Notes under the pieces: generated by a model
Seen by the model: the letters and a program-made list of their open reading frames with translations, nothing else
Database searches by the model: none
Told to the model about the DNA's origin: nothing
Virus record (IMG/VR): IMGVR_UViG_3300045988_139474
Location: 32,001 to 96,000 of that record
Length of the DNA: 64,000 bases
Source: a virus
Direction: 5' to 3' (one strand)
Position numbers and translations under genes: made by a program
In this document: one piece after another, positions 6,201 to 62,368 of the stretch
How positions within the stretch are numbered: position 1 is the first letter of the stretch
How the letters are laid out: each line of letters starts with the position of its first letter

Positions 6201-6409
6201 AAGATTTCTTCGCGGTCTTTGTTTGAGATTTCCTCGTTGATAGTCGTGAACTCAATCAGATACGGCAGGAAGCTCAGGGAATTGACTGTTGTGCGCATAA
6301 CGGCAGAGGCCGTCTCGCTAGATGTAAAACAGTCAGTCACTGTAATCGCTTGGTTGTCTAAGTTTGAAATGATGGCTGTCTTTGCTGATCCTAATTCTTT
6401 AATCCACAT
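3266..6409 (-). CDS. Family A DNA polymerase with 3'-5' exonuclease domain (1047 aa)
   Basis: Exo I LGLDFETNA, Exo III YCALDAAYT, motif A DYSALEVTVLA, motif B RRFSKACSFSILYGKG, motif C FTHDAYDD. An extra ~160-aa N-terminal region has no recognised motif. Confidence 0.9.
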   Translation of the reverse strand: MWIKELGSAKTAIISNLDNQAITVTDCFTSSETASAVMRTTVNSLSFLPYLIEFTTINEEISNKDREEILAFLKEQGITKVICVGRTAVDCLFPSISKGKMMSQLVVSQAIPTLEIPEISAAAVKSYFTVKSGEDAIEYRQRIDYLHEFKSQVKIKTTKIDGEEQFLKLLEVLTAQEGKLGLDFETNAVEPMSEGFKLTEIGLSFSADINHAYGYHYDVPFEGLSERALKAFEAFLDANYQRIYTYNCTFEIAVAFRIVKKFYKFQDVIVMASVNAERSSLKDLLRKKFGAAIWEADVKEFQAEYKKFVSKVGRNAALREACYAGDIETLRASGNAGILAFLEYAEANFEPSEIVEALRHFPSAWGATPKTILGVYCALDAAYTVVLAHHYQLEYPEVMPSYHFCLRQPWMAVKFELHGFMWDENAANALEQEMYAEAVPLMRNIIEACKANLSPELAMDWATYGQQKIPFNFVYYTGKTQKEKVMLVDTPEKEIEWLKRFWNPGSNTAASRDFFWKTYLTEELRLGVILNLFLETSDLMGRLPEVMSVFPSDDFLKSNSIKDILSFLSAYVKGNKNKTANFIGSMLKTAIEELPNYIGRYASDTIKYQYQIHSRYLGVDSDKPETWTKEFKLLFDLFLLKKILKVISANINGVQGRGSVHLVDTTDTTYGDNIWLRKKPYESLTAEEKRTGSLLTNVEFNSLAANSGRWSAAFHSISAGSPMRAIMIPRRPNHVLVHADYSALEVTVLARVTGDRNLIQVFLDGKDIHRYAASKIFEKPEAEITSEERRFSKACSFSILYGKGVESFAFDNTGGDVQKAQAIFDAFFKQFPGIKEFIHKAHAEIDRTNAYVTTMLGNKVPIDVNAGGGAKYRQAQNQIIQSLGSLVAGTSMYQFLEYCEKQGYDCAPYAFTHDAYDDSTSVDTIFEYLEGMEEVMVNRVRQSVGIPVSIDYELAANGRDLCSIDFTPREQDERTVTIKGTSIAIDGLLSRLKLSKTYDLEGIEVETSEPQDYGWSELWGVGKALKYEWGKTIQQSKATFKVKYRKN

Positions 6410-9247: not shown

Positions 9248-10444
9248 TTACACTTTCTTGCGAACCATCTTATCAAACATTGGCGCCAACAACATAGCTT
9301 GAACGCGTGCAGCGTTGTATGGCTTATTAGTCTTAGCCAAGTCAAAGTAGTAGCGTGCAGCATCCTTAACAGAACCGCCGAAAACAGGGGATTTCTGAGC
9401 CAGATAGGTCTTAGCACGCATATTCAGCGCAACGCCGTTAACAATAACGCTCAACAGGTCTTTGGCTGATACTTTCTTGCCTTGCAAGTAGTCACCCAAA
9501 GCTTTCAGGCCGTCTCGATTCGTTGCAGCTTCTTTCAAGGCTTTGCCCTTAGATTGTTTCGATTCAGACAGAACCCATTTGATAGCATCTTCAACGGTGG
9601 AATAACCGCTGATTGCTTTCATGGCTGCTTGAACCTCTTTCTGAGCTGGGCCAATCTTGACGGTGCTTGAAATCAGGCCTTTAATCGGCTTGCCGTTGTT
9701 AGTGTCTTCAGCCTTAACGCCTGAATAGACGTGGGAAGCACTAACAGTATGGATACCTGCTTTCAAGATTTCCTCAACCTTGTCGGAAACCTCAAACCAT
9801 TCTTTCGGCGTTTCATTACCCAACAACTCTTCAACATCCAAGCCTGAGCCTGTTTGTTGCATAGCGCGTTTTGAGTTTGCGCCAATAGTATTGATGGTAG
9901 CGTCACTCGAAGCTCGAACACGCATGCCTGGGCCAGAACCAATCAGGAGATAGGTTGACAAGACGATAGCACCGTCATGGCCGACTTTAGCGTACAATTT
10001 CTTGAGTAAGTCAACCAGTTCATACTCTTTCTCCGTATCAACTTGAAGATTGCCGGTCACGAACATACCCTTGTCCAGATTCAAGTCAATCAGGCTATCC
10101 AGGTTGACGCTTGAGATGTCCTCATCGTCAATCTCTGAGCCTAAGTTCAGCTCAATGCCTGGATAGTCACCAGCACGTGAGTAGAAGTTGCGCGCCAAGT
10201 TCATAGCAGCCTCTTTACTCATGTACATGCGATACTCATAGTACAAGGCTTCAACAGGGTTTCGGGCTTCCTGAGCCAGTTTCTCATAACGCTTGCGCGC
10301 TTGGAGATAACGTTTCTTGCCTTCAGGTGTCGACATGTACTTATTCATCGTGTCAATCATCTCAGGCGAAAACATCTTATCAAAAGAGGCACTCTCACCA
10401 AACTTTGCAGCTTGAGCGATTGCACCCTTTAGTCTTTCAGTCAT
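9248..10444 (-). CDS. Hypothetical protein (398 aa)
   Basis: Long ORF followed by an intrinsic terminator. No motif recognised. Confidence 0.6.
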   Translation of the reverse strand: MTERLKGAIAQAAKFGESASFDKMFSPEMIDTMNKYMSTPEGKKRYLQARKRYEKLAQEARNPVEALYYEYRMYMSKEAAMNLARNFYSRAGDYPGIELNLGSEIDDEDISSVNLDSLIDLNLDKGMFVTGNLQVDTEKEYELVDLLKKLYAKVGHDGAIVLSTYLLIGSGPGMRVRASSDATINTIGANSKRAMQQTGSGLDVEELLGNETPKEWFEVSDKVEEILKAGIHTVSASHVYSGVKAEDTNNGKPIKGLISSTVKIGPAQKEVQAAMKAISGYSTVEDAIKWVLSESKQSKGKALKEAATNRDGLKALGDYLQGKKVSAKDLLSVIVNGVALNMRAKTYLAQKSPVFGGSVKDAARYYFDLAKTNKPYNAARVQAMLLAPMFDKMVRKKV

Positions 10445-11147
10445 TGTTGTCCTTTCGGGCTAAGACATCCAAGGCCGTCTCAATCAAAGCGATTCTGGCT
10501 TCTCGTGAGAATATGCCTGCGGCTGTATTAGCCTCATTCAGTACCAGCACTGAGAACAGGTTGCCTACTGTAATCAAATCAGCCGTGCAACCGTAAACAG
10601 CAATGGTCTGGTTGGTTATCGGATAGTTTTGGTTATACATCGCCAGAGCAGCCCGCACTTGAGATGAAAGCGTTGCAGCATAAGCAGCATAGTAGGCAGG
10701 TGAGCTTACTCGCATTCCATCATCTTCAGCCTTCTCAAGTCTTGGGGCAATCATAACCAACAGGTCAGACAGTCTCAAGCTATCGGAGGCCAATTGACTC
10801 AACTCATTGTCCTTTTCAATATCTGCATTGAACGGAGCGTTATGCATGCTGTAATAAGCAAGGCTATCAAACACGCTCCTGTCCGATACAAAACCTGAGC
10901 CGAAATTGCGGAACAGCTCATAGCGATTCTTGATTAGCAACTCTTGGAACGCTATGCCCTTTTCAGGTTCATTGGCTGCTAATCGTAAAATGTCCTGATG
11001 CGTCTTAGTGCCTTCAGGCATATGGTCTCGACTAGCGAAGCGCGCAACAGGCACGCCATGCTTCTCCGACCAATCAGTCATCAGTGTCGTCTTTCCTGCT
11101 CCGTGTGAGCCGCAGATAACGACCTTAAAATCCTTGTAATTTTTCAT
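10437..11147 (-). CDS. P-loop NTPase, candidate (deoxy)nucleotide kinase
   Basis: Walker A GSHGAGKTT near the N-terminus. 236 aa. Embedded in the nucleotide-metabolism operon. Confidence 0.45.
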   Translation of the reverse strand: MKNYKDFKVVICGSHGAGKTTLMTDWSEKHGVPVARFASRDHMPEGTKTHQDILRLAANEPEKGIAFQELLIKNRYELFRNFGSGFVSDRSVFDSLAYYSMHNAPFNADIEKDNELSQLASDSLRLSDLLVMIAPRLEKAEDDGMRVSSPAYYAAYAATLSSQVRAALAMYNQNYPITNQTIAVYGCTADLITVGNLFSVLVLNEANTAAGIFSREARIALIETALDVLARKDNND

Positions 11148-11706
11148 ATAAATAATTTTCCGTTAAGAAAGCCTCACCAATAGCCAGCAAGTCTTTATCC
11201 AGCATCTGGTATTTCTTGAATGTTGTCTCTTGAATCTTCGCTACATTAGCCCAATCAAATTCACCGTCTGGTGTCTTGTCCTTGTAGCCTCGCAAATTAA
11301 GCTCTTCTACAATCTCATGCTCAACCGCCAATAAATCGGCTAATTTGACGATGAACTTGGTAACATCAGATACTTCAGACACGCCTAAGTCAGCAAGCAC
11401 CTTGTCCTCAATAACGCCCAAGGCCTTAACCAAATCAGGGTTTTCTCGTTTGACTACATACTTAACATCGCCAGTAACGACTTCAGGCAAATCATGACTT
11501 GCAGCATACTGGACGATTTCAAACTTCAAGTCATCCGTGAACGTGATACCGTGTTGGGCATAGAAGTCGATGATATCAAGGCAGATAGCCACTACCTCAG
11601 CATGGTGCTGAGATAAAGAACGGCGGTGTGCTCGAACGTTAACACCAGACCAACGGTCAACGTGATGAGAGGCTTTTGTTAAATCGAAGAAATTGTTGTA
11701 AGTCAT
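11125..11706 (-). CDS. HD-domain phosphohydrolase, YfbR-like 5'-deoxynucleotidase
   Basis: QHHAEV...AASHDLPEVVTGDV matches the H...HD...E..TGD metal-binding pattern of YfbR-type HD nucleotidases. Confidence 0.65.
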   Translation of the reverse strand: MTYNNFFDLTKASHHVDRWSGVNVRAHRRSLSQHHAEVVAICLDIIDFYAQHGITFTDDLKFEIVQYAASHDLPEVVTGDVKYVVKRENPDLVKALGVIEDKVLADLGVSEVSDVTKFIVKLADLLAVEHEIVEELNLRGYKDKTPDGEFDWANVAKIQETTFKKYQMLDKDLLAIGEAFLTENYLYEKLQGF

Positions 11707-11734: not shown

Positions 11735-12892
11735 TTATTTGATTGGGCAGAACATGTCTGAGTGTTTAAAGGCTGTCTTCAAGTCAGAATTGACGATATT
11801 GTCTAAGGCTTCAAGCATCAATCCCTCTAACTCGGCCTTATCGCTTTCGGTTGTTGTCTTGGTCCAGATTTTACGAATCATTTCATAAGCAAGAATCGCC
11901 AGATAGTCCTTAACCAAAGAAGAATTTTGGAAGACAGTGCGATTAGTCAAGCCTAAGGCGATTTCCAGCAGCTTGTGAGGGACATGACGGTTGACGTACA
12001 AGAATGAAATTGCATTAGTCATGAACACCCTTACAGCATTGACGAATTCATCAGCTGTTTCAAACGGTGCAAGATAGCCCGTCAGATTATCCAGTCCAGG
12101 ATAAGACAAAGCAACCTTGTTATCCAAGACGGCCTTGAATTGCTTCTCAGCCAAATTATTGCCCTTCTCAACTGCTACTGGGTCGTTAGCCAGATACACG
12201 TGCAGATTGTTTGAGAACAGCGTGTAATTACCAATTCCCTCAGCAAATTCCTCAGGGTGTTTTTGGTGTAAGTACAGAGCAGTCAGTTCCTGCAGGAAGC
12301 TGAACTCAAAGAAGTTGATAGTAAACACACCATAGCTGACGTCATTTGACCGATTGATTACAGTCACATCAAGCTGTTTCGTCTCTTGATTGACGTCAAA
12401 GTACAGCATGTTATTACATGACCTGTCCTTGATATGCGGTGTTCCATGATTGAATTTGATAGCGTCATACGATTCTTGGGCTGGGTCAAAGATACTCAAG
12501 ACGGCTTGACGGGTCTGAGGGTTGGCCTCAAGATACTTGATAACGCCAGCCCATTGATTATGCTGATACAACATTGGGCCATAGGCTCTAGTCCATGTAA
12601 CGCCATCGTCTGAATACAAAGGTGCGCGGTGTAGGAAGTATTCCAACCAGCCTGAAATTACCTTAGAACCCGATAACACCCAAAAGGTCTCTGCAATAGC
12701 AGCAGCGATTGAGTTATTGCGTCCGTCAAGTGTAACATAACGCTCTTTTGGGTTAGTAACGCAGATTGTAGCTCGCTTTACGGCCTTAGTTGTACCCTTC
12801 TCAGATTGAGTTACTGCGCCGTGAGAGTCAATCAATCTCGCAGCTTGGATATACGCGTCATTTACATTCAACGCATTGATTAAGTGTGGCAT
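11735..12892 (-). CDS. Thymidylate-synthase-family enzyme, probably a pyrimidine dNMP hydroxymethylase, with ~150-aa C-terminal extension
   Basis: RQAVLSIFDP, catalytic-Cys segment DRSCNNMLYF, INRSNDVSYGV (RSND as in T4 gp42 rather than the QRSCD of ThyA). Start trimmed from the track value 12928 to ATG 12892 (AAAGGA SD), because 12918-12955 is a promoter motif. Confidence 0.7.
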   Translation of the reverse strand: MPHLINALNVNDAYIQAARLIDSHGAVTQSEKGTTKAVKRATICVTNPKERYVTLDGRNNSIAAAIAETFWVLSGSKVISGWLEYFLHRAPLYSDDGVTWTRAYGPMLYQHNQWAGVIKYLEANPQTRQAVLSIFDPAQESYDAIKFNHGTPHIKDRSCNNMLYFDVNQETKQLDVTVINRSNDVSYGVFTINFFEFSFLQELTALYLHQKHPEEFAEGIGNYTLFSNNLHVYLANDPVAVEKGNNLAEKQFKAVLDNKVALSYPGLDNLTGYLAPFETADEFVNAVRVFMTNAISFLYVNRHVPHKLLEIALGLTNRTVFQNSSLVKDYLAILAYEMIRKIWTKTTTESDKAELEGLMLEALDNIVNSDLKTAFKHSDMFCPIK

Positions 12893-12917: not shown

Positions 12918-12955
12918 ATTATACACAAAGAACGATAAGGCCGAAAAACGCATTC
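12918..12955 (-). promoter_or_regulatory. Class-1 conserved promoter motif, copy a
   Basis: Minus sense GAATGCGTTTTTCGGCCTTATCGTTCTTTGTGTATAATG. TATAAT lies at 12918-12923, about 25 nt upstream of ATG 12892. Confidence 0.6.
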
Positions 12956-12983: not shown

Positions 12984-13544
12984 CTAGACAGTAGAATCTT
13001 CTGAGAGGACAGCTGCCGATACGGCGTTGTACCCTTGATAGTGTCCGTTGTATCCGTCTGCTTCTAGCAACGGAATATCCAGCTGGTTGAACTTGAGCTG
13101 ACCTATACGCTGGCCAGCCTTCAACACGATAGGATACGGCGCGGAATTATACAATTCAAGAGTGACTGAGCCGTTGAAGCCTGGGTCAATGAAGCCTGCT
13201 AGTTGATGTTCCAACCCGACACGGCCTAATCTTGACTTCAAGCAAAAGTCAGCACATATATCCAGAGGGATTGAAAAGATTTCCGCAGTATGAGCCAGAA
13301 TGAACTGTTGAGGCTGGAGGGTGAATGTTCCTCCCTCCTCAAGCTTAACCCAGTCAAAGTATTCCTCATTGCCTTCCAGCCAGCTTTTCAACGGCTCGGA
13401 TTTACCATTGGGAACCATTAGCTCACAACCAAGAGTTACATCCAAGCTTGCAGGATTGATTAGCTTGCGCAGGTCAAATACATCTCTGTTCTCAACCAGC
13501 CCTTTAGTAATCAACCGCTCGATATTGTAGCGCGACAGAATCAT
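12984..13544 (-). CDS. dCTP deaminase family enzyme (Dcd/dUTPase fold)
   Basis: SRLGRVGLEHQLAGFIDPGFNGSVTLELYN...AGQRIGQLKF is the Dcd family signature. Confidence 0.8.
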   Translation of the reverse strand: MILSRYNIERLITKGLVENRDVFDLRKLINPASLDVTLGCELMVPNGKSEPLKSWLEGNEEYFDWVKLEEGGTFTLQPQQFILAHTAEIFSIPLDICADFCLKSRLGRVGLEHQLAGFIDPGFNGSVTLELYNSAPYPIVLKAGQRIGQLKFNQLDIPLLEADGYNGHYQGYNAVSAAVLSEDSTV

Positions 13545-20466: not shown

Positions 20467-20669
20467 ATTGACCACTTCTGCTCAAGAACTAAGGCGCACA
20501 GCCCAAGCATACGGTCGGTTGTCGTCTTGAGATAAACAAGTTTTCCGCTAGGATAAGCATACAAGTCACCTGTTTCTTGAATGCTTAACACTGTTGCTTG
20601 AATGCCGTATGAGTCAGACACTACTTGAGTGCCCTCTCGCAGTTCATCAATCCTTAGCATTGCCGTCAT
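20457..20669 (-). CDS. Hypothetical small protein
   Basis: Start uncertain. The track start 20711 lies inside the MazG-like gene, so it was trimmed to an internal ATG. No clear SD. Confidence 0.4.
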   Translation of the reverse strand: MTAMLRIDELREGTQVVSDSYGIQATVLSIQETGDLYAYPSGKLVYLKTTTDRMLGLCALVLEQKWSIKN

Positions 20670-21330
20670 TGTGCTTGTAGAAGGCTTCATAGGCCTTGTA
20701 AACAGAATCAACGGTCACTTCGGATAACCCCTCAGCCAGACGCAAGGCTTGGGCGTTATCTTCAAGGCCGTTCACGAATTTGCGATATGTACCGTCATTG
20801 TAGCCGTTATTCTGGCGGAATCTGTTCAACGCATTCTTGACGACATATCGGGTGTACAACTCATCAAAACCCATTCCGATTCGTTGGCAAAGACGCAAAA
20901 ATTGCTTCACGGTATCGGGGCTTCGATTAATCATGGAATTGATGAACGGTGTAACATTCTTGTCGTATTCAGTATTGAGTTTGAGTGGCTTCTCTTCTAC
21001 ACCGTCAACCACAAATGCGATATGATGTCCCAACGGTCTCACGCGGTCTTCAAAGTCAAATTGCGCGGTCGGTCGGAATAACAACTCAGGCTCAATCAGG
21101 TCAGACAACAAGAAGTGCCAGATATCAACCAGTTCAGTCTTAGCATTCTCAATATCAATCTCCTGTTGCTTCCACCATTTGTAGCCTACTGATTCAAGGT
21201 ATTCACCTGTTTCAGCAATGATTGCATTAGCCCAAGAATTGCCCTTAGCATACCATTCTGCGCCCTGCGTTACAACATTGTTCTCGTGCTGCAATCGTAG
21301 CATCGTCAGCACTTTATTGAGTGTGTTCAT
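20647..21330 (-). CDS. All-alpha NTP pyrophosphohydrolase (MazG / dimeric dUTPase-like)
   Basis: LRLQHENN...W..AIIAETGEYLESVGYKWWK...ELVDIWHFLLS fits the E..E...WKWW...E.VD..HF pattern of dimeric dUTPase/MazG-type enzymes. Confidence 0.6.
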   Translation of the reverse strand: MNTLNKVLTMLRLQHENNVVTQGAEWYAKGNSWANAIIAETGEYLESVGYKWWKQQEIDIENAKTELVDIWHFLLSDLIEPELLFRPTAQFDFEDRVRPLGHHIAFVVDGVEEKPLKLNTEYDKNVTPFINSMINRSPDTVKQFLRLCQRIGMGFDELYTRYVVKNALNRFRQNNGYNDGTYRKFVNGLEDNAQALRLAEGLSEVTVDSVYKAYEAFYKHNDGNAKD

Positions 21331-21345: not shown

Positions 21346-22275
21346 CTATCGTTTATGCTTGATAAGTATTCGTTTGTAGATTTCTTTACCGCCAATCGTA
21401 ACAGCCATATCAATATCCTCCGCCCAACCTTTAGGACGGCCATGGTTGTTCGAACAGCCAATCACTTCAAATTGGTCGGGATTATGTTTGAGAAAGAATG
21501 TAATAGGTACACCCATCACGCCATCATAGTCATGCGGGATGTTAGCAACTTTAGATACCTCAATAGCATCATAGTTGTCGTACTTCGGATGAGTTTCAGG
21601 GCTGTAGGCTTGTTGAAGAACCAACTTCTCAGGCCGTTTAGCATGGTCTAGGTTAGTGAACCAACTAACATTGCCTAGACTTCGCCACTTTCGGCCTTCC
21701 TCATCTTGACGATAACGTGTTGCTTTCGGCTCGTAGTAATCAGGCACTAAGAACTCCATATCATTCTTATTCGCACCTGCCCACATCTTATTGTCTCGCA
21801 ACAATTGAAAGATTCCATTATATGCAAAGGCATTCTGGTTACCAATTATCAAGAACTTCTTGTTATATTCAACCAATTGCGCTACATATTCCCGAAACAG
21901 AGAAAATGGCGGATTGGTTACAACAATGTCCGCTTGTTTCAGCAACTCGACGCACTCATCGCTGCGAAAGTCTCCGTCACCTTTCAACGGCTCGATTACC
22001 GCATTGCCCTCACCCCAGTATTCCGCCCGAACACCGTGCTCAGAATTTTCAGTTTTGTAACCGCTCGCAATCAGCTTCTTCAAGCCCAGCTGTTTGAAGT
22101 TGTCGAAGAAGTAACGAAAGAAGTTGCTAGCATTCGGGTCATCGCAATTGCAGTAAACAACTTTGGCCTTGAAATGTTGTTTGTAATGCTGCAATTCCTT
22201 TTCAATATCCGACAGCTGAGTGTAAAATTCATCATTCTCGTTTACTTTGGCTGCGTTGAGGAATTTATTAGTCAT
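21346..22275 (-). CDS. N6-adenine DNA methyltransferase
   Basis: Motif IV VVTNPPFS. The N-terminal DEFYT and CNCDDP segments are typical of the EcoRI-like adenine methyltransferase family. Confidence 0.75.
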   Translation of the reverse strand: MTNKFLNAAKVNENDEFYTQLSDIEKELQHYKQHFKAKVVYCNCDDPNASNFFRYFFDNFKQLGLKKLIASGYKTENSEHGVRAEYWGEGNAVIEPLKGDGDFRSDECVELLKQADIVVTNPPFSLFREYVAQLVEYNKKFLIIGNQNAFAYNGIFQLLRDNKMWAGANKNDMEFLVPDYYEPKATRYRQDEEGRKWRSLGNVSWFTNLDHAKRPEKLVLQQAYSPETHPKYDNYDAIEVSKVANIPHDYDGVMGVPITFFLKHNPDQFEVIGCSNNHGRPKGWAEDIDMAVTIGGKEIYKRILIKHKR

Positions 22276-35787: not shown

Positions 35788-37953
35788 TCAGCCCTCGCAA
35801 GCGATACACTCACCTCTAGGGTTTGAGCCTCGTGTAAGTCGGGTGCTGCGTTGGTAATACAAGCCTTTGATGTTTGGATTTTCAAGGGCTTCTCTGGTCA
35901 CCTCTGAGATGTATTCCTCATCCTCGACAAAGAACAAGTTCAATGATTGGCCTTGACAGATGAACTTCTGACGCTGAGCAGCCAATCGGACTAATGCTGA
36001 TTGGTTGATTTCAAAAGCGGTCTTGAATACGGCCTTTTCTTCGTCAGTCAAGAAGTCCAGATGTTGAACTGAACCTTGATAGTTGTCGTTGATGTCTCGG
36101 ACAATATCATCATTGTACTTGTCGTATTTCTTCAGGACTTTGATGAACTCAGGATTGATACGCACCATGTTACCAGCAGCCGTGTTTTGGGTGAAAGTAT
36201 TAGAAACAAACGGCTCGATACCTTGACTAACACCACCGCAAAGTACAGCTGAGCTCATATTAGGCGCAATGGCTGTACGTGTTGAATTGCGGATTCCGTA
36301 TCCTTTGGTGACTTCACACTCGCCCAGGATTTCGGCTAACCATTGACTAGCTCGTAAGGTTTCATCATGAATCTTGCGGAAGATAGCCATGTTTTCAAAG
36401 CTTGCTTGCAAGGAATCAATTGGAATCATCTTGGATTGAAGATAGGTGTGGAAGCCTAAAGCACCCAAGCCCAAAGCGCGGTATTTCTCGGTGAATCGTG
36501 CAATCTTCTCAAGGCCAGGTGTTGTTTGCATCTGGATTAGGGAATGACTGCACACGCAATCAAGGAACACCAGTGACCAGAAGATTGTATCTTCATCAAA
36601 CTCATCCCACTTGGCTAAGTTCAAAGAGGATAACACGCAGCTAAAGGTTAGCTCCTCGCTTGCGGGCAAGGCGATTTCGGTGCAGTTGTGTACCAAGATG
36701 CCGTTGCAGGCATATTGACCTGGCGCAATATAGAAGTTGTGAACCTCATCAACGGTCAAGTCGTACACATCAACTTCACCCTCAAGATATTCAACATTGA
36801 CTACTTTGAGCCCGTGAGGCAGGTTGAATGCTTGTAACTCATAACCCAAAGAATCTTTCGCTTCAATCCATGTACCACGGAATGAGGCTAGTTGATGCTC
36901 AGGCGTACACTTGAATTTGTCGCCATTCTCAAGGGTTACTTCAACAACCTGCTTAGTACCTGTCTTGAACGCAACGGCCTCTCGAATGATAGGCTTACTC
37001 CAAGTATCAAACCCAATCAATTTGGTAAGTTGTTTTGAGCAATACACTAGGAATTTGACTGTACCGTTAGATTCTTTGGCTAACTGCTCAATAGCAACAG
37101 CATTTCTGCCGTCTGCTACTGCTACCAAAGTATCGCCTGTAAAGCAAAGGTTTGAGGCATAGACTTTCTCACCAGTCTGACGGATACACTCAGGCGCAAG
37201 TCGGTTAGCAACATCCGACTTCCAGATGTAGCCTTTACCAAAACGGCTGCGGGTGTACATCATCTCGGTATAACGGCGGATAGCCTCCGCATCACCTTGT
37301 CCTAGACGGTCAATGAATTCATCCGTGAAGTTGTAGCCAATATTGGCCTCACCTGGATTCTTGAGGACATAGTCATTCATCTCGTCAAAGTCACCATGGT
37401 CCATGTCGATATAGCCAGCCCAAGAACCACGGCGATTGTTGCCTTGGGATACTAATTGGGCGGTGCAAGTGAACATGTCGAATACTGGAACAACGCCATC
37501 AGCTTCGCCACCGACTGAGATTGGAGTGCCTCTCGGTCGAATATCCCCCAAGTAGGCTGATGTACCGTAGCCGTTCTTGCTCAATAACGCCATCTCACGC
37601 AAGGCTGAGTAGAAGCCGTCAATTGAATCTTCAATGTAGCTACCAGAGCAGCTGACTGAATGACCTCGATTGGTACCAGTGTTGCAATATACAGGTGTTG
37701 ACGGTGCAAGATGACCTTTCCACATGATATCAAAAAACTTCTGTTCAGCCGTCTCTTGATGCTCAAATGGGAGATATTTCGCTAGGGTCTTTGCAATCGT
37801 CTGAAAGCGTGAGCGGACAGTTTCGCCGTTGTAGGCATACTTATTGCGAAACATGATATAGCCCTGAGTAGTCATCCATTCAGGGATTTCATTTTGAGAT
37901 ATCAGTTGTTTGCGCTCAGCTGATAGCTCTTCGTAGGATTTTTTGTTGCTCAT
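35788..37953 (-). CDS. Class I ribonucleotide reductase alpha subunit, intein-containing (721 aa precursor, ~567 aa spliced)
   Basis: Extein junction ASNL/CTEIALP restores the SNLC.EI thiyl-radical loop. C-terminal redox pair ECIACEG. No ATP-cone. A beta subunit is encoded nearby. Confidence 0.85.
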   Translation of the reverse strand: MSNKKSYEELSAERKQLISQNEIPEWMTTQGYIMFRNKYAYNGETVRSRFQTIAKTLAKYLPFEHQETAEQKFFDIMWKGHLAPSTPVYCNTGTNRGHSVSCSGSYIEDSIDGFYSALREMALLSKNGYGTSAYLGDIRPRGTPISVGGEADGVVPVFDMFTCTAQLVSQGNNRRGSWAGYIDMDHGDFDEMNDYVLKNPGEANIGYNFTDEFIDRLGQGDAEAIRRYTEMMYTRSRFGKGYIWKSDVANRLAPECIRQTGEKVYASNLCFTGDTLVAVADGRNAVAIEQLAKESNGTVKFLVYCSKQLTKLIGFDTWSKPIIREAVAFKTGTKQVVEVTLENGDKFKCTPEHQLASFRGTWIEAKDSLGYELQAFNLPHGLKVVNVEYLEGEVDVYDLTVDEVHNFYIAPGQYACNGILVHNCTEIALPASEELTFSCVLSSLNLAKWDEFDEDTIFWSLVFLDCVCSHSLIQMQTTPGLEKIARFTEKYRALGLGALGFHTYLQSKMIPIDSLQASFENMAIFRKIHDETLRASQWLAEILGECEVTKGYGIRNSTRTAIAPNMSSAVLCGGVSQGIEPFVSNTFTQNTAAGNMVRINPEFIKVLKKYDKYNDDIVRDINDNYQGSVQHLDFLTDEEKAVFKTAFEINQSALVRLAAQRQKFICQGQSLNLFFVEDEEYISEVTREALENPNIKGLYYQRSTRLTRGSNPRGECIACEG
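36685..37146 (-). mobile_element. Mini-intein (154 aa, no homing-endonuclease domain) inside the RNR alpha gene
   Basis: Block A CFTGDTLVAV starts at TGC 37144-37146. Block B KCTPEHQL, block F VYDLTVDEVHNFY, block G GILVHN ends at AAC 36685-36687, followed by +1 Cys. Confidence 0.85.
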
Positions 37954-38561: not shown

Positions 38562-38831
38562 TTAAAGCATGACCCAGTCTTCAGACAAAACGTCAGTTTG
38601 ACTAGCTAACCATGGGACTAACTTGCCGTCAGCCGTTTTCATGTAGATTGCGTCCAGCACGTCTTTCGTCTCGGCATCTGGGTGATTGTAGGCATCGTTG
38701 ATGACCTTAGTAATAGCCTCACCTCGAACCAAGAACAGGAACATGTTTTTGCCGTTCCAACCATTGCGGGCAACTAGGCCACCCATTTTCAAATGCTCAA
38801 GGGCATTACCAAAAGTAAGCAATTCAGGCAT
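38562..38831 (-). CDS. DUF2829-family protein (Tad2-like candidate)
   Basis: FGNALEHLKMGGLVARNGWNGKNMF...IYMKTADGKLVPWLASQTDVLSEDW matches the DUF2829 consensus as I remember it (FG.AL..LK.G..V.R.GWNGK.M...MKTADG..VPW.ASQ.D.LAEDW). Confidence 0.7.
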   Translation of the reverse strand: MPELLTFGNALEHLKMGGLVARNGWNGKNMFLFLVRGEAITKVINDAYNHPDAETKDVLDAIYMKTADGKLVPWLASQTDVLSEDWVML

Positions 38832-41273: not shown

Positions 41274-41621
41274 CTACTGGAAGTTTTCGGCTATTTCAGC
41301 GATAATCTCGTCAAGAAGCCGTTTGCGCTCTTCTAGCATGTAGTGAACAACCAAAAACTCAAAGCTCGTTAAGGATTGAATGTGAGGATTTTGAGCTTGT
41401 GTGTAGTTATCGGCTGCGGCTTCTGTCAGCCACTTCAAATGACCTACCAAATTGCCCTCTCTTAGCAACCGCGCTTTTTCTTCAGCTTCTGACTTGAAGC
41501 CGTCAAGTTCAGCCTTGAGTTTCAATCGGGCTTTAGCTTCGTGCATGGCTGCTTCTTCAAAAGCTTCACGTGCCTCAGGATTTTTACAGGCTTCGTGATA
41601 TGTCTTCAAGATTTTACACAT
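41274..41621 (-). CDS. Paralog family 4, member 5 (115 aa)
   Basis: Start trimmed to ATG 41621 (AAGGAG SD). NPEAREAFEEAAMHEAKARL aligns with the other four members. Confidence 0.6.
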   Translation of the reverse strand: MCKILKTYHEACKNPEAREAFEEAAMHEAKARLKLKAELDGFKSEAEEKARLLREGNLVGHLKWLTEAAADNYTQAQNPHIQSLTSFEFLVVHYMLEERKRLLDEIIAEIAENFQ

Positions 41622-41631
41622 TTGATTCTCC

Positions 41632-41985
41632 TTAACAAGCCAATGCAAGATGCTCAGATGTCGCGCCTACAACATCATGAATGATATCAGCCATCTGTTG
41701 ACAGAGGTAGCAATCAGCCAAGCACTTAAAGCTCTTGTCTGGCTCAATATTAGGGTCGATAGCTCGGTCATACTCTTCTGACGCATCAAATGCGTCCTCA
41801 TACAATTCTGCGACATCCAAACATTGTCGCAGCCACTCTTTCATATGTTCTTTTGAGCCAAAGCCGTTATCAACCAGATAGTCATTGAACTCTTCTTGAG
41901 CTTGCAATTTAGCAGCCTGTCTAAAGGCTTCACGCTCCTCAGGATTGAGACTTGCTTGACAATAGTTTTGCGTTGGTCGGTACAT
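41632..41985 (-). CDS. Paralog family 4, member 4 (117 aa)
   Basis: MYRPTQNY...EEREAFRQAAKLQAQEEF...DPNIEPDKSFKCL. Confidence 0.6.
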   Translation of the reverse strand: MYRPTQNYCQASLNPEEREAFRQAAKLQAQEEFNDYLVDNGFGSKEHMKEWLRQCLDVAELYEDAFDASEEYDRAIDPNIEPDKSFKCLADCYLCQQMADIIHDVVGATSEHLALAC

Positions 41986-42365
41986 CAGATTTCCTTTCCC
42001 TTGTTAATCTCTAAGCCTGCGGCCAATCGTTTCTCTTCAAGCACACTTTCAATCATGTACATATACGTCTCAAGAAGCAAGGCTTCAACCAAAGCTTCAA
42101 AACTGTCTTCAGGGCTGATATCAGGTTGTACGGCTCGTTGTCGATAGTCGTTAGCTTCTTCCTCAGCATAGTACAGACGTGTACGCAATTCACCTTCTGT
42201 CTCTTGACTTAAGGTATGGCGCATATGCTCTACTGATGAAAAGCCTTCACCGACCAAGCCGTCTTTGAAGCGCGTGTTAGCCTCAATTTCAGCTCGGTAC
42301 TCAAAGTCCAAGTAAGTCGCAAAGTCGCTATCTAAGTTGTGAAGATTTGCTTTAGGTCGATACAT
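41985..42365 (-). CDS. Paralog family 4, member 3 (126 aa)
   Basis: MYRPKANL...QPDISPEDSFEALV. ATG 42365 overlaps the upstream TGA by 1 nt. Confidence 0.6.
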   Translation of the reverse strand: MYRPKANLHNLDSDFATYLDFEYRAEIEANTRFKDGLVGEGFSSVEHMRHTLSQETEGELRTRLYYAEEEANDYRQRAVQPDISPEDSFEALVEALLLETYMYMIESVLEEKRLAAGLEINKGKEI

Positions 42366-42739
42366 CACATCTTCTCCTTGCTAAGCATTCGGATTGGCTT
42401 GCCACCAAGAATCTTATTGACGGCTGTAAGGGCTGTAATAGTGAAGTATGAGTGGACTGTTTCCTCAAAGCTTTCCTCTGGACTAGCATTCGGGTCGTAA
42501 GATTTGGTGCTTGATTCTTCAAGGTCGTCTTGAAGACTCAAGGAGTAAAAGGTCAAGTCTAACGCAGGCTCAGCACGCAGGCAACTTTCCCAGTCCTCTT
42601 CTGAGGCAAATCCGCGTTCTTTCAAGTCAGCATTGAAGCGTTCTTTAGCCTCTTTATGTGCTGCGTCTGTAAAAGCTTTGAAGTCAACATCATCGCCTTT
42701 GACGGCTTGATTAAGGTTCATTGTCGGTTGAAACATCAT
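42365..42739 (-). CDS. Paralog family 4, member 2 (124 aa)
   Basis: Start trimmed to ATG 42739 (GAGAGGA SD). MMFQPTMNL...DPNASPEESFEETV. Confidence 0.6.
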   Translation of the reverse strand: MMFQPTMNLNQAVKGDDVDFKAFTDAAHKEAKERFNADLKERGFASEEDWESCLRAEPALDLTFYSLSLQDDLEESSTKSYDPNASPEESFEETVHSYFTITALTAVNKILGGKPIRMLSKEKM

Positions 42740-42747
42740 TTGTCCTC

Positions 42748-43119
42748 TCAATCGCCGTATTGATTACGTTCACGGATAGCGTACAACTCAGCTAACACGA
42801 TATTGAAGACATTGATTGTCTCTTCAACTTCGATTGCCTGCACCAATAATTCAAAGCTCTTCTCAGGGCTAATAGTCGGATTAGTTGCTTGAAAGCGCAA
42901 TTCCTCAGCTTCCAATTCCATGTCTGCTGATTGGCTCTCTAAATCGGTCTCAGCCTCACCGCGCAAGGCATCCATCATAGCCTCGACTGAATTGTACCCT
43001 TCCTTTTTCAATCCTGCTTTGAACCGTGCTTGAGCTTCATGAGTAGTTGCTGTTTCAAACACTTCACGTTCAAGGTAGTCATCTTGAATCTGGCTGAGGT
43101 TTTTAGTCGGTCGGTACAT
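42748..43119 (-). CDS. Paralog family 4, member 1 (123 aa)
   Basis: MYRPTKNL...EREVFETATTHEAQARF...NPTISPEKSFELLV. Confidence 0.6.
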   Translation of the reverse strand: MYRPTKNLSQIQDDYLEREVFETATTHEAQARFKAGLKKEGYNSVEAMMDALRGEAETDLESQSADMELEAEELRFQATNPTISPEKSFELLVQAIEVEETINVFNIVLAELYAIRERNQYGD

Positions 43120-43167: not shown

Positions 43168-43183
43168 CTAATACTAATTTTTA
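43168..43183 (-). promoter_or_regulatory. Class-2 intergenic motif
   Basis: Minus sense TAAAAATTAGTATTAGTTCATGAAATATTGAATTATCTC, 49 nt upstream of start 43119. Confidence 0.45.
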
Positions 43184-43495
43184 GCTATCGGACACGACAA
43201 ACTGCGCCTTAGCTTCCTCAAGAAACTTGGCGTACAAGTATTCCATTGTCTCAATCAAGTTTTGCTTGAAGTTAAACAGCTTGAGTCGGTTATCAGAGGC
43301 TACACTCACGCAAGTCTGGTTCATGGTGTAATATAGGCCTGAAGTGTCGTTTTCAAGACGGAAGGCTGCACCCTTCAGCGCAGCCTTTTCTAAGCCTAAC
43401 AACCAACCAGAGATAGTCACTTGAGTCAGCTCATCAGTTACCCGACAAACTGAGAAAGCCTCAAACAACTCTGTACGGTCAATTTGGGCTTGCAT
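43181..43495 (-). CDS. Hypothetical protein (104 aa)
   Basis: Start trimmed to ATG 43495 (GAGGG SD, just after the upstream stop). Confidence 0.5.
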   Translation of the reverse strand: MQAQIDRTELFEAFSVCRVTDELTQVTISGWLLGLEKAALKGAAFRLENDTSGLYYTMNQTCVSVASDNRLKLFNFKQNLIETMEYLYAKFLEEAKAQFVVSDS

Positions 43496-43499
43496 AGCT

Positions 43500-44501
43500 T
43501 CAGCCCTCGTATTTCCGAATGCGCATAGCAACACCGTTCATCAGCTTATTAAGCTTGTTGAACTCGCAGAAGCTGTTTTGACAAGTGCCTAACGACCAGA
43601 TACGGTCATGAGGCTCTTTCATGTAGTCCAAGATTTCTTCAGGCTTGAACTCAAGGCCGTTATCAGACATGATTGACTGAATATTGGTCGTGAAATTACG
43701 AATCCAGTCATTGTAATCTTGCTGAGACCAGCGATTGAGGTTGTATTTGACTCTCTTCTTACCAATCTCATCAACAAAGATTTCGCAGTTGCCGATGAGC
43801 CAGTCAATCCCTTGAATAGCACCTGGGCCACAGTTGACGTAGTCATTGTCTGTAAATTGGTACTCAGGGCAATACGTCCAATCCTCCCAGATTTGGTAAG
43901 CAATGAACTCACCAAAGCCTTTGATTGTCTTCAGGGTCTCAACGGCTTCTTCGGCGGATTCTGCTTTCAGGGCAGCCAAGATTTTATCCTTGTTGTCCAT
44001 GATAAGCTTGAAGCGCGCCAGCGTGTAACCTCGAAGCTCAGGAGCGTTCTTGTAAGCCTCAAGTACGACCATACTCAAGAAGTAGGCGTTTGACTGACGG
44101 GTTTCACCCTTGCCTTCGCCTTTCAAGCCAGCCTCAACCTTTTTGAAGAACTCCCAGTCAATATCGGCTGAAGTAGCATGAGCCATTCGGATAGGCCATT
44201 CAGGCAACCAACTACAGCCTGCCTCGTTATTGATACAGCGGAACAAGGCGCAGTTCATTGCTTTATCCTCAAGGCTCAAGTCTGGATTCTCGCAGACGGT
44301 CTCTAGGAGGAACTGGGACTCACGGTCATTCTTGCGATGGACGTTAGTGAACTTGTAGTGCTTCAAGTAGTAGTCGTCAGTCCAGGGCTTTGGCTGGCCT
44401 AACACGTTCTTGCGACGGTAAACATCTGAACGTCCGTATTGATAATCACGATACAACTTGAGTTTATCGGCCTGAATCGGCAAATTGAGATTTTTAGCCA
44501 T
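43500..44501 (-). CDS. aGPT-pyrophosphorylase-like DNA base hypermodification protein (candidate)
   Basis: N-terminal GQPKPWTDDYYLKHYKFTNVHRKNDRESQFL matches the motif I recall for alpha-glutamyl/putrescinyl thymine pyrophosphorylase family proteins (G.P.PWT.D.IL..Y.F.NV.R..DR.SQ). Not verified by HMM. Confidence 0.5.
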   Translation of the reverse strand: MAKNLNLPIQADKLKLYRDYQYGRSDVYRRKNVLGQPKPWTDDYYLKHYKFTNVHRKNDRESQFLLETVCENPDLSLEDKAMNCALFRCINNEAGCSWLPEWPIRMAHATSADIDWEFFKKVEAGLKGEGKGETRQSNAYFLSMVVLEAYKNAPELRGYTLARFKLIMDNKDKILAALKAESAEEAVETLKTIKGFGEFIAYQIWEDWTYCPEYQFTDNDYVNCGPGAIQGIDWLIGNCEIFVDEIGKKRVKYNLNRWSQQDYNDWIRNFTTNIQSIMSDNGLEFKPEEILDYMKEPHDRIWSLGTCQNSFCEFNKLNKLMNGVAMRIRKYEG

Positions 44502-45552
44502 TTTTCAATCCTGCTTGAATTTCTTGCTCTAAGAATTTGAACAGCAACCAATAATCTTGATAATTCTTGGCTGGGTCAGTGTAGCTGCGTTTAGCTTGGA
44601 AGCTTGAACGCTTTGTATGCTCAACAAAATCAGTCGGGTCAACGCCGATGGCCTTGAGATAGCGGATGACCGCAAAAATCGGCTCTTCAGTCGAATCAGC
44701 CATATTCAGATGAACAAATTTCATCTGGTCTTTGAGCTTCTCAGCCTGCTGACTGATACGCTTGAACGGAATAGTTGAATGGCGCTCGTTGTTGTTAAAG
44801 GCAGAATCGCCCTTAGCAACTTGGTAGCTTCTGTCCTTGAATCGCTCCAGCATTACGTCTTTGCTAGCGTGGCGGAAAGCTTCCAAGATATATCGGTCTT
44901 GGCCGTTGTCTTTCAGCTGATTCTCCAAGTCAAAGGTCGCAACCTCAAGGCCTGCATAGCCCTCAAACAACACGTTGTACTTCTTAGCATAACGATGTAG
45001 CATTTCAAACAAGGTACAGTGAGACAGGCCTGAGGTGATAGAATCCGCTCCAGTCAAGCTCAACAGACGTGATTTGTTTGACTTGACGATTTTCGCACCC
45101 AAAATCAGGAGATTCAAGGCAGGAATCAGGATACCAACATATTGGCGTGAGCGTGGGACATTCTGATTACCGACAAATTTGTCCTCAGGCTTTTCGGCCT
45201 TATGAAAATTGGGGATGTCGTCCTCAAACAACAGCTTCCATTGGTAGTTAGCAATCAAGTAGTCCAGCAGCATAGCCACTCGTGTACCCTTACCAGTCGC
45301 TGAGATACCCTTGAACTGGGCAAAGGAATAGGGACTGGCTGCGATTACAGTGTCTGTCGGCTCTTGGTCGGGCTTCAAGTAATTCGCAGGCGCAGGGATT
45401 TCGCCTTTCAATTTGACCTGATATTCCTCAGGGACTTTCACGGCGTGATCAGTCCATGGCTCATAAATCACTTCGCCAGCATAGCCAATACGGCGTAAGC
45501 TTTCTGGCCAATCCTCAGGATTGACCTTTTGGCCTTTCTTGTAATTCATCAT
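44494..45552 (-). CDS. Hypothetical protein with deviant P-loop, coupled to the hypermodification candidate
   Basis: GISATGKGT resembles Walker A but has G where S/T is expected. 8-nt overlap with the downstream gene and 4-nt overlap with the upstream gene. Confidence 0.3.
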   Translation of the reverse strand: MMNYKKGQKVNPEDWPESLRRIGYAGEVIYEPWTDHAVKVPEEYQVKLKGEIPAPANYLKPDQEPTDTVIAASPYSFAQFKGISATGKGTRVAMLLDYLIANYQWKLLFEDDIPNFHKAEKPEDKFVGNQNVPRSRQYVGILIPALNLLILGAKIVKSNKSRLLSLTGADSITSGLSHCTLFEMLHRYAKKYNVLFEGYAGLEVATFDLENQLKDNGQDRYILEAFRHASKDVMLERFKDRSYQVAKGDSAFNNNERHSTIPFKRISQQAEKLKDQMKFVHLNMADSTEEPIFAVIRYLKAIGVDPTDFVEHTKRSSFQAKRSYTDPAKNYQDYWLLFKFLEQEIQAGLKNG

Positions 45553-46691
45553 TTTGATTCCTCTTCAACATAAAAATCGAATACTGGTTGAATAGCTTTG
45601 CGTTGTTCCTTATCAGACAATCGCATGAAGTCGGTCGGTAGGTTGAACTCTTGGTACAGGTTACCAAATTCTGGATAATCGTCTTCAAGGTTCAAGACAC
45701 GGCCTGTCTTAACTCCCAATTTCTGCAGGATATGTGAAGACTTACACAGCCGAACTTTCGGGTGTTGATCAGTCTCCATGAATTCCAACGCAGCACTGTA
45801 GTCAACATCGGGGAACAACTCTTGCATCTTACACAACCACTCATAACAGTAAGTCGTATTATAGCCCATATATTCACCTCCTGAATAGCACAGGCGTTTA
45901 AACTCACACAACCAAGTTTCAAGGGTGTACTTGTTGTATTGCGGGTGAAAATCCGCTCCGAAAGCTTCCTCAATACGCTGGACTAATTCCTCTTCCAACG
46001 CCAAGACTTCCTCAGGGTCGTAGCTGCTGCGCTTCTGGCTTTCTTTGCCGCCGCCAGCAATTGGACGGTTGAATAAGAACAGTAAGCCATTACGCACTGA
46101 CCAGTTTTCAGGGCGGTCGGCCAATACGTTAGGAGGCATCATCTTGTACGGTGTCAAAGTATGGAGGGCTTGTTGGGTCACCCAGTTAGCCATACGGCCG
46201 AACTCAAGGAACTTGCTCAACTCGGCATAAGTGCGATGGTAGTTATCCTCAAGGCTGGCGTTGAAGTCGTAGAAACTGTTAATCCAGTCAGTCAAGGTTT
46301 CAAACGGCGCAATCGTCTCTTTGATTGAAGCAGCCATCAGGTGGGCTTTACCACGTTTCCACTTCATGTCTGAAGCCCAAGCCAGCTTGTACTTGTAAGC
46401 TGTCTGGAACTCTTCCAATTCTTTCAGGTCAATATCCTTGAAATTAGGGAATCGCCAATAGATAGCCCAAGCACCGATTTCTTCGTGGCAAAAGCCTTGC
46501 AATAGGCTGAACCATAGGGCTTGCTCAACCGTCATAGGCTCGCCAGTCGGCGATTTATCCGTGTCGCGGAAAGCTAGTGCAGTGCCTGGTTCATCAATAT
46601 CATTGTTATCAAGCTTCCATTTGTAAAGCTTGAGAAAGACATCCATCCGATTCTCAGGCTTGCGAATGTCTGTTATCAAAATTGTCGTCAT
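45549..46691 (-). CDS. Hypothetical protein (380 aa), first gene of the coupled three-gene cassette
   Basis: Start trimmed to ATG 46691 (GAGGA SD). No motif recognised. Driven by class-1 motif copy e. Confidence 0.55.
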   Translation of the reverse strand: MTTILITDIRKPENRMDVFLKLYKWKLDNNDIDEPGTALAFRDTDKSPTGEPMTVEQALWFSLLQGFCHEEIGAWAIYWRFPNFKDIDLKELEEFQTAYKYKLAWASDMKWKRGKAHLMAASIKETIAPFETLTDWINSFYDFNASLEDNYHRTYAELSKFLEFGRMANWVTQQALHTLTPYKMMPPNVLADRPENWSVRNGLLFLFNRPIAGGGKESQKRSSYDPEEVLALEEELVQRIEEAFGADFHPQYNKYTLETWLCEFKRLCYSGGEYMGYNTTYCYEWLCKMQELFPDVDYSAALEFMETDQHPKVRLCKSSHILQKLGVKTGRVLNLEDDYPEFGNLYQEFNLPTDFMRLSDKEQRKAIQPVFDFYVEEESK

Positions 46692-46707
46692 ATACAATCC
46701 TCAGGTG

Positions 46708-46749
46708 TTATATGGAATACAAAGAACGAAGAGGCCGAAAAGCGCATTT
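46708..46749 (-). promoter_or_regulatory. Class-1 conserved promoter motif, copy e
   Basis: Minus sense GAAATGCGCTTTTCGGCCTCTTCGTTCTTTGTATTCCATATAAC. Confidence 0.5.
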
Positions 46750-46798
46750 CAGACGAAAGAAATGCGGAGCGCAATATCAACTACACTCCGCACGGCCT

Positions 46799-62290: not shown

Positions 62291-62368
62291 TCTTTAAAAT
62301 AATTTCGACTTTTTCGATAACTCGTTGTTTTTACTAAGAAGAAAGTTTAAAATATTTTCGATTTTCTT

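Follow-up and report, generated by a model that had tools for sequence, protein, structure and literature searches.

The window analysed here is a 64,000-nucleotide stretch of a viral genome (IMG/VR record IMGVR_UViG_3300045988_139474, positions 32,001 to 96,000), and its element of interest is a minus-strand cassette of three overlapping genes, A, B and C, predicted to hypermodify thymidine in phage DNA. The source is an uncultured phage of human oral metagenomes of ~145-154 kb; contigs of the phage reach 143-154 kb, and its records include human oral metagenome labels and one Human Microbiome Project scaffold. A megablast search with the cassette found no match, and hence no close cultured relative, among 50,697 phage records. 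Gene A occupies 45549-46691 when read from ATG (380 residues), or 45549-46697 when read from TTG, and belongs to the ADDT family (formerly aGPT-Pplase2, for alpha-glutamyl/putrescinyl thymine pyrophosphorylase) of predicted transferases. Gene B (44494-45552, 352 residues) is predicted to be a P-loop 5-hydroxymethyl-deoxyuridine (5-hmdU) DNA kinase of the HMUD2 type, and gene C (43500-44501, 333 residues) belongs to HMUDK_hel (formerly aGPT-Pplase1), a helix-hairpin-helix-glycosylase-like paralog of ADDT. The three genes give independent Pfam matches above gathering thresholds (PF18724, PF18747 and PF18723, respectively), in line with the thymidine-hypermodification cassette proposed in the initial annotation.

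The three genes, their coordinates and their overlaps, as first described, are borne out by the list of open reading frames (ORFs) and by direct reading of the junctions. Specifically, the TGA stop codon of gene A lies within the ATGA of the gene B start, resulting in a 4-nt overlap, and ATGGCTAA belongs to both gene B and gene C, which overlap by 8 nt. Gene callers choose another in-frame ATG of gene B one codon downstream, which reduces the overlap with gene A to 1 nt and yields a 351-residue product. A Shine-Dalgarno-like sequence, GAGGA or AGGA, stands upstream of each of the three starts. Directly after the topoisomerase II small-subunit gene, a terminator-like hairpin on the minus strand (46762-46793), with a 14-pair stem that includes 6 G-C pairs and is followed by TTCTTTCGTC, marks the upstream boundary of the cassette transcription unit. 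Between this hairpin and the start of gene A lies a promoter-like motif (GAAATGCGCTTTTCGGCCTCTTCGTTCTTTGTATTCC..., 46700-46751, minus strand), one of seven minus-strand copies of AAATGCGCTTTT-N~11-GTTCTTTGT(G)TAT found near 62291, 55820, 46750, 41249, 22510, 22377 and 12955. The motif is thus real and placed where a class-1 promoter copy had been noted; its copies precede operons across the window without matching the sigma-70 consensus, and they presumably act as promoters.

The cassette extends beyond the three genes that were first delimited. Gene D (43181-43495, minus strand, 104 residues) starts 4 nt past the gene C stop, is probably carried on the same transcript as genes A-C, and may form part of the operon as its fourth gene. 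It has no assigned family, with no Pfam or PHROG match, yet it is present in all close relatives, with 80-97% identity in contigs L005-L007 and L012. NCBIfam gave no matches for genes A-D. Relative to L012, which is 90-93% identical, the ratio of nonsynonymous to synonymous substitution rates (dN/dS) is 0.06 for gene A, 0.075 for gene B, 0.056 for gene C and 0.25 for gene D. The cassette genes are real and under purifying selection, and the A-B-C-D block behind the topoisomerase genes is intact in four other independent assemblies. A decayed remnant is ruled out by the dN/dS of 0.06-0.08.

The predicted transferase and its kinase

Gene A, in which the initial annotation had seen no recognisable motif, matches PF18724 (ADDT) over residues 54-266 with 62.6 bits against a cut-off of 26.2 (E 5.7e-17), and it carries the catalytic motif. 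The proven transferases of PF18724, namely M6 gp51, ViI gp247, PhiW-14 gp109, PaMx11 gp46 and 15599 Pplase2, all belong to clade 2 (PMC8989533, PMC11472151, PMC13458397). The motif L-E258-T259-W-L-C262-E263 of gene A aligns with the essential Glu, Thr and Cys of M6 gp51 and PaMx11 gp46. In PaMx11 gp46, Glu243 and Thr244 are metal ligands and Cys247 is the nucleophile acting on C6 of the base (PMC11472151), and M6 gp51 and ViI gp247 lose their activity when either the Cys or the Glu is mutated (PMC8989533). Conservation of the motif was judged on alignments of 14 and 44 sequences. E258 and C262 are invariant in alignments of gene A with the characterised enzymes, and across the 44 relatives C262 is the sole invariant column, with E258 kept in at least 90%.

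A single-sequence phmmer search of A, B and C against PDB sequences returned nothing significant, and a fold search was therefore needed. The AlphaFold2 model of gene A (predicted local distance difference test score, pLDDT, 92.9) has 8z2m and 8z2n, both PaMx11 gp46, as its sole PDB matches at E<=0.001 (probability 1.00, TM 0.50/0.63), with helix-hairpin-helix glycosylases far behind. Judged by this model, gene A is predicted to share the helix-hairpin-helix-containing fold of the solved transferases.

The residue that follows the catalytic Cys helps to specify the donor of these enzymes. The glycine enzymes have a Lys here, which binds the carboxylate, the 1,3-diaminopropane enzyme has Gly, and a two-residue swap reprograms the donor (PMC13458397). 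In our alignment, this position holds Trp in ViI-type serine enzymes, Glu263 in gene A and Gln in the nearest relatives of gene A. In the donor pocket of gene A, only this residue and Tyr274 are placeable with confidence. A word-indexed search of 5.8 billion proteins matched gene A to a 99% identical cluster only, and an exhaustive HMMER search of 1.84 billion representatives gave 99 matches at E<=0.001, the best of them 32% identical; among cultured phages, the best tblastn matches are the ViI/Ackermannviridae transferases. No other known sequence is more than 34% identical to gene A, a divergence too great for its donor and product to be predicted. By sequence, gene A appears to lie outside every characterised transferase cluster. 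Taken together, its conserved residues and modelled fold predict a functional ADDT that transfers an amino acid or amine onto 5-phosphomethyl-dU.

Gene B matches PF18747 (HMUD2, '5-hmdU DNA kinase 2') with 39.1 bits against a cut-off of 25 (E 6.4e-10). The GISATGKGT present at residues 82-90 had been described as a deviant P-loop of a possible 5-hmdU DNA kinase; the kinase assignment stands, whereas the P-loop is simply that of the HMUD2 family. Gene B aligns full-length with the Kuttervirus ortholog of ViI gp243, and the invariants of the two comprise GxSxTGKGTR (G82, S84, T86-R91), SNKS (K160-S161), D170, E197-G198, R237 and R241-S242. ViI gp243 has been shown to phosphorylate 5-hmdU in DNA (PMC8989533). 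The word-indexed search returned seven relatives of gene B, and every homolog found carries PF18747; its N-terminal extension of ~75 residues is confined to its own small clade of 36-38% identical relatives. Gene B is therefore predicted, from sequence, to be an HMUD2-type 5-hmdU DNA kinase. A second kinase of the HMUD1 type and extra ADDT or HMUDK_hel paralogs were searched for in the window, and none was found.

ViI and other Ackermannviridae resemble the present system in having an HMUD2-type kinase (gp243) near a long-form ADDT of ~400 residues (gp247, a serine:DNA transferase), together with a clade-1 paralog (gp160). Identity is nevertheless only 21-26% for gene A and 23-27% for gene B, and the ViI enzyme has Trp after the Cys. 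ViI further differs in having a second kinase (gp67) and a pyridoxal phosphate (PLP) decarboxylase (gp226), and in keeping its clade-1 gene far from the kinase.

Gene C, a cysteine-bearing paralog

Gene C matches PF18723 (HMUDK_hel) over residues 15-319 (profile positions 5-273 of 281), with 144 bits against a cut-off of 25 (E 7.6e-42). The motif PWTDDYYLKHYKFTNVHRKNDRESQ, from which the last gene had been read as an aGPT-Pplase, is present at residues 39-63, and the Pfam comparison with the aGPT-Pplase families confirms the family in that PF18723 is the former clade 1; the proven transferases, however, are all of clade 2, which is the clade of gene A. Seven relatives of gene C were returned by the word-indexed search. 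An alignment of M6, PaMx11, Klebsiella phage May, RP13, EP_H11 and metagenome members reveals two invariant elements, C312-E313...K316 in N-S-F-C-E-F-N-K and a G-x-G-x-F-x-A-Y element. When the HMUDK_hel and ADDT profiles are compared with hhalign (probability 89.9%, E 1.7e-6, 233 columns), C312 falls onto C262 of gene A.

The fold search points in the same direction. The AlphaFold2 model of gene C (pLDDT 89.1) matches two BFVD entries, SP10 gp186 (F8WQ30, a 637-residue '5-hmdU DNA kinase'; TMq 0.73, probability 1.00) and PhiW-14 C9DG43 (annotated as HMUDK_hel domain-containing; TMq 0.63, probability 1.00). The next BFVD match is an 'amino acid:DNA transferase domain' protein (E 1.5e-3), and the best PDB match is, weakly, PaMx11 gp46 (probability 0.80). 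Judging from these alignments and models, gene C looks like an enzyme paralogous to the transferase, and the description 'helical domain of kinase' seems to undersell it.

Gene C directly adjoins the kinase gene through the 8-nt overlap, and the same kinase-then-HMUDK_hel order is found in M6 (gp54-gp55) and PaMx11 (gp49-gp50). In SP10, the kinase is fused to the clade-1 domain in the same order (PMC5889632); SP10 gp186 thus carries in one polypeptide of 637 residues, from N- to C-terminus, what is here encoded by two overlapping genes, and the model of gene C superposes on it. M6 and PaMx11 further share with the window an ADDT gene in first place and, after it, a P-loop 5-hmdU DNA kinase gene with a stand-alone HMUDK_hel gene directly behind (gp51...gp54-gp55 in M6 and gp46...gp49-gp50 in PaMx11), so the impression that the gene order here resembles no known cassette does not hold. 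The likeness includes the ETxxC motif, the match of the gene A model to the PaMx11 gp46 structure, and the presence in the genome of a thymidylate-synthase-like gene followed by an HD hydrolase. Unlike in the window, tailoring genes lie between transferase and kinase in M6 and PaMx11, encoding PLP and radical S-adenosylmethionine (SAM) enzymes or a flavin adenine dinucleotide (FAD) oxidase and an acetyltransferase. Additionally, their kinases are of the short HMUD1 type (187-189 residues) rather than the 352-residue HMUD2 type of gene B, gene A exceeds gp51 and gp46 by ~90 residues and shares only 12-14% identity with them, Lys (binding the glycine carboxylate) replaces Glu after the catalytic Cys, and the hydroxymethylase operon, ~30 kb from the cassette here, is adjacent to it in M6 and PaMx11. 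Judged by gene content, the kind of system is known, with a 5-hmdU kinase, a transferase and a paralog in the order of the M6/PaMx11 core minus its tailoring genes. New are the uncultured oral phage lineage, a fully overlapping three- or four-gene operon around an HMUD2 kinase, and a transferase that, by sequence comparison, falls outside every characterised cluster.

A catalytic-type motif in gene C raises the question of which paralog installs the modification. SP10 makes alpha-glutamylthymidine with only its kinase-fused clade-1 domain and has no clade-2 transferase (PMC5889632); the Cys-Glu...Lys motif of gene C is invariant and homologous to the ADDT catalytic motif, and gene C is translationally coupled to the kinase. 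Gene C might accordingly be the installing enzyme, with gene A in another role. We regard this as rather improbable, since every experimentally shown transferase is of clade 2 (PMC8989533, PMC11472151, PMC13458397), M6 gp55, which Pfam assigns to PF18723 and hence to clade 1, is dispensable for glycine transfer in vitro (PMC8989533), and gene A has all of the catalytic and metal-binding residues together with the matching fold. Both genes could also be active, the two roles being compatible.

With gene A as the more probable installing enzyme, a different role for gene C may be proposed. According to Lee et al., phages of this kind turn 5-hydroxymethyluracil (hmU) into a hypermodified base or into canonical thymine before packaging, their glycosylase-like genes often come as a paralogous pair, and borohydride reduces the transferase intermediate to thymidine (PMC8989533). 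From these three points we speculate that gene C would most likely resolve phosphorylated hmU to thymine at the sites that are not hypermodified. Alternatively, gene C may serve as the DNA-binding, base-flipping partner of the kinase.

The related module of RP13-like phages

The family-A DNA polymerase of the window (3266-6409, minus strand, 1047 residues, Pfam DNA_pol_A) has Ralstonia phage RP13 as its closest cultured relative, with 34.5% identity over 97% of the query by tblastn, and also matches those of Rhizobium RHph and EP_H11/IME392 phages. The latter phages are listed as RP13-like, and RP13 itself is one of a set of phages for which bulky thymine modifications have been proposed (PMC12686479). 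The cassette follows the same pattern. Gene C shares 41% identity with RP13 ORF120 and 54% with the homolog in a metagenomic relative, L010, and gene B shares 38% with the kinase of L010; these are the closest HMUDK_hel and kinase matches. With profiles built from our alignments, ADDT-like genes were found in both phages, namely RP13 ORF118 (L001 5870-7642, 590 residues, annotated as hypothetical) and L010 6509-8251 (580 residues), each of which matches the ADDT profile at ~1e-38. Both proteins carry E-S-V-x-C-E, with the same Cys-Glu dipeptide as gene A.

In L010, the order is ADDT-like, HMUD2 and HMUDK_hel, as for genes A, B and C, with other genes between them. RP13 contains all three families in a different order, with the ADDT-like gene, one small gene and HMUDK_hel followed further on by an HMUD2-like gene. 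In both, the module is mixed with PIG-L, ATP-grasp, GT4, MFS and myo-inositol-1-phosphate synthase genes, whereas the window has an overlapping operon without such partners. From this comparison, the window operon appears to be a compacted form of the RP13-like module, and the unannotated ADDT-like gene of RP13, next to HMUDK_hel, would tie the heavily modified RP13-like phages to the same enzyme core.

The same likenesses of polymerase, kinase, HMUDK_hel and Cys-Glu dipeptide, and the sugar and inositol genes that accompany the module in L010 and RP13, raise the alternative that the cassette is the front end of a bulky modification in the style of RP13, YerA41, Carin-5 and SP-15, in which gene A would attach a linker that is then phosphorylated and glycosylated by enzymes encoded elsewhere in the genome. 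This seems unlikely to us. Pfam finds no glycosyltransferase, sugar-nucleotide or inositol-phosphate synthase gene in the 64-kb window plus ~16 kb of flanks, and gene A is without the ~200-residue N-terminal extension of the RP13-type proteins of 580-590 residues. A weaker argument is that the phage assembles as contigs of 140-154 kb in many ordinary metagenomes, whereas bulky RP13-like phages resist standard sequencing (PMC12686479).

As a separate observation, the m/z 346 mass-spectrometry fragment of the modified thymidine of YerA41 (PMC12686479) equals the [M+H]+ of seryl-thymidine, 345 u (PMC8989533). This match is only a coincidence of mass, although a serine linker attached by an ADDT in RP13-like phages would be compatible with it.

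Precursor supply and the proposed pathway

The cassette sits in a region of replication and nucleotide-metabolism genes that encode topoisomerase II subunits, an SbcCD-like nuclease, ribonucleotide reductase, helicases and the family-A polymerase. Candidate genes for the supply of 5-hmdU triphosphate (5-hmdUTP), all on the minus strand, lie in the low part of the window. Behind the promoter-like copy at 12955, the first gene is dCTP deaminase-like (12984-13544; Pfam DCD, E 2.4e-33; PHROG 1663), a candidate supplier of dUTP or dUMP. A divergent thymidylate-synthase homolog (11735-12892; Pfam Thymidylat_synt at E 3.6e-11 only; PHROG 3676, E 1.9e-72) is a candidate dUMP hydroxymethylase. Directly after it comes an HD-domain YfbR-like deoxynucleotidase (11125-11706; Pfam YfbR-like, E 6.6e-10) and, at 10437-11147, a P-loop nucleotide kinase-like gene (Pfam AAA_28, E 1.8e-12; PHROG 'thymidylate kinase'), a candidate kinase of dUMP or its hydroxymethylated form. 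A dimeric dUTPase/NTP pyrophosphohydrolase-like gene (20647-21330; Pfam dUTPase_2, E 2e-22; PHROG 173) is a candidate dUTPase/dTTPase, and phage 15599 has an analogous bifunctional enzyme (PMC13458397).

The thymidylate-synthase homolog is most similar to those of M6, PaMx11 and EP_H11 (29-32% identity), and both the catalytic Cys159 and Asn193 are invariant between it and these homologs. In thymidylate synthases and dCMP hydroxymethylases, Asn in place of Asp at this position is taken as the mark of uracil specificity. The order of synthase then HD gene matches M6 (gp58-gp59) and PaMx11 (gp51-gp52), and from this context the homolog is a putative dUMP hydroxymethylase. Together, the supply genes would make up the expected pre-replicative route to 5-hmdUTP, provided that their products have the activities assigned to them.

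The closest stand-alone relatives of gene A bear on whether 5-hmdU is the starting base. They lie in 28 IMG/VR contigs (L014-L041) and are 30-34% identical over the best segment. Within 7 kb of them, an HMUD2 kinase is found in none of the 28 contigs, HMUDK_hel in one, and a weak HMUD1-like match in two. In all seven contigs inspected, the ADDT-like gene is preceded by tightly packed genes. In five loci sampled with Pfam, the upstream genes encode a TET/JBP dioxygenase or a radical SAM enzyme and, in most of them, an FkbM-type methyltransferase or a GT4-like protein directly before the ADDT-like gene; a myo-inositol-1-phosphate synthase lies downstream in three of the five (examples are L025 4930-9519, L035 4453-8149 and L041 4778-8128). 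By analogy with these neighbourhoods of TET/JBP and methyltransferase genes, the base modified here could be 5-hydroxymethylcytosine, or hmU made within DNA by a dioxygenase. This we consider very improbable, given that the window has no TET/JBP match, that it encodes a dCTP deaminase and a thymidylate-synthase homolog whose Asn193 is shared with M6 and PaMx11, and that gene A is directly coupled to an HMUD2 kinase.

With 5-hmdU as the substrate, we propose that the cassette would be the post-replicative half of a 5-hydroxymethyl-dU-based thymidine hypermodification pathway. In the first step, dTTP would be replaced by 5-hmdUTP through the dCTP deaminase, the dUMP hydroxymethylase, the HD nucleotidase, the nucleotide kinase and the dUTPase-like enzyme, and the phage's own family-A polymerase would incorporate 5-hmdU. 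In the second, as its family membership suggests, gene B would phosphorylate hmdU in duplex DNA to 5-phosphomethyl-dU. In the third, for which the conserved residues and the fold argue, gene A would flip the base and bind a divalent metal via Glu258 and Thr259, Cys262 would attack C6 with expulsion of the phosphate and formation of an exocyclic methylene, and a small-molecule nucleophile, probably an amine, would add to the methylene to give a hypermodified thymine. In a fourth, speculative step, gene C, the Cys-bearing paralog that is always with or fused to the kinase, would process the same phosphorylated intermediate. The modification would protect the phage DNA from host nucleases. We consider it likely that the cassette is a functional thymidine-hypermodification module that works through the first three of these steps.

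In the 64-kb window and ~8 kb beyond each end (~80 kb), Pfam detects no PLP, radical SAM or FAD oxidoreductase, acetyl- or glycosyltransferase, and no TET/JBP or inositol-phosphate synthase match. The PLP and radical SAM partners whose lack the initial annotation had found remarkable are thus indeed not seen, yet this is not unusual in itself. In PhiW-14 (Delftia; putrescine) and Acinetobacter SH-Ab 15599 (1,3-diaminopropane), kinase and transferase give the final base from a host metabolite without a tailoring enzyme (PMC13458397). Because no tailoring enzyme was found by Pfam in ~80 kb, the transferase product may likewise be the final base, and PhiW-14 and 15599 share the pathway logic proposed here. 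Unlike gene A with its Glu263, the 15599 enzyme has Gly after the catalytic Cys; neither phage gave a match in the gene A tblastn search, and gene A lies outside the sequence cluster of both. What the transferase makes might be an adduct already known, a small one not seen before or, if partner genes lie in the other ~65-75 kb of the genome, the starting point of a bulky modification of the RP13 type. It is conceivable, though we would not expect it, that in this abundant oral phage lineage a deep-branching transferase, whose donor pocket differs from all characterised ones in having Glu after the catalytic Cys, makes a chemically new thymine in one step and that gene C, as a second active Cys enzyme, converts the remaining phosphorylated hmU to T. 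If so, gene C would supply the activity that has long been missing from accounts of why these phages have T but no hmU in their packaged DNA.

Several points weigh against this pathway. The chemistry of the module is read only from genes and predicted structures, and sequence by itself does not separate the thymidylate-synthase homolog from a true thymidylate synthase. For gene B, the match to HMUD2 is modest in score and covers residues 80-260 only (profile 7-167 of 298). The role proposed for gene C is without experimental precedent, M6 gp55 not being needed for glycine transfer in vitro. Genes for tailoring or sugar transfer could be encoded in the other ~65-75 kb of the genome, and ViI keeps its PLP decarboxylase far from the transferase. 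Furthermore, the nearest relatives of gene A are in TET/JBP clusters with no detectable kinase, and the chemistry of this clade may differ from that of the characterised enzymes.

The assignment extends the 5-hmdU kinase/transferase system to a widespread human-oral phage without a close cultured relative, and the predicted modification of its DNA, if real, would influence how restriction systems, and possibly CRISPR, target the phage. The compact unit of three, perhaps four, genes could be cloned as one piece and would offer a route to a new donor specificity in ADDT, an enzyme family that is now being engineered for DNA labelling. Additionally, the 'helical domain' label of HMUDK_hel may mislead, as its catalytic-type Cys motif points to an extra enzymatic step in all such phages.

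Other features accompany these genes in the window and its surroundings. Directly downstream of the cassette is an array of paralogous ORFs of ~120 residues (41274-43119, minus strand) with no Pfam or PHROG match. Its copy number varies among near-identical phages, with 5 in the window, 11 in L005 and L006 and other numbers in L007 and L012, and it spans 13573-17722 in L005 and 12637-14935 in L012. An EcoRI-type N6-adenine DNA methyltransferase (21346-22275, minus strand; Pfam E 1.7e-124), for which no nuclease partner was seen, provides this phage with a further, independent means of protecting its DNA. A Tad2-like (Thoeris anti-defence 2) gene of 89 residues (~38562-38831, minus strand) lies between the ribonucleotide reductase genes. 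The large subunit of this reductase (35788-37953, minus strand) carries an intein (Pfam Intein_splicing/PT-HINT), whereas the 565-residue version in L012 is without it. Just past the low end of the window, a multisubunit-RNA-polymerase beta-prime-like protein with Rpb1 domains (998-1147 residues) is encoded at 10668-14111 in L042 and 10668-13664 in L043, and one variant of it contains an intein. This RNA polymerase gene fits the seven promoter-like copies that depart from the sigma-70 consensus.

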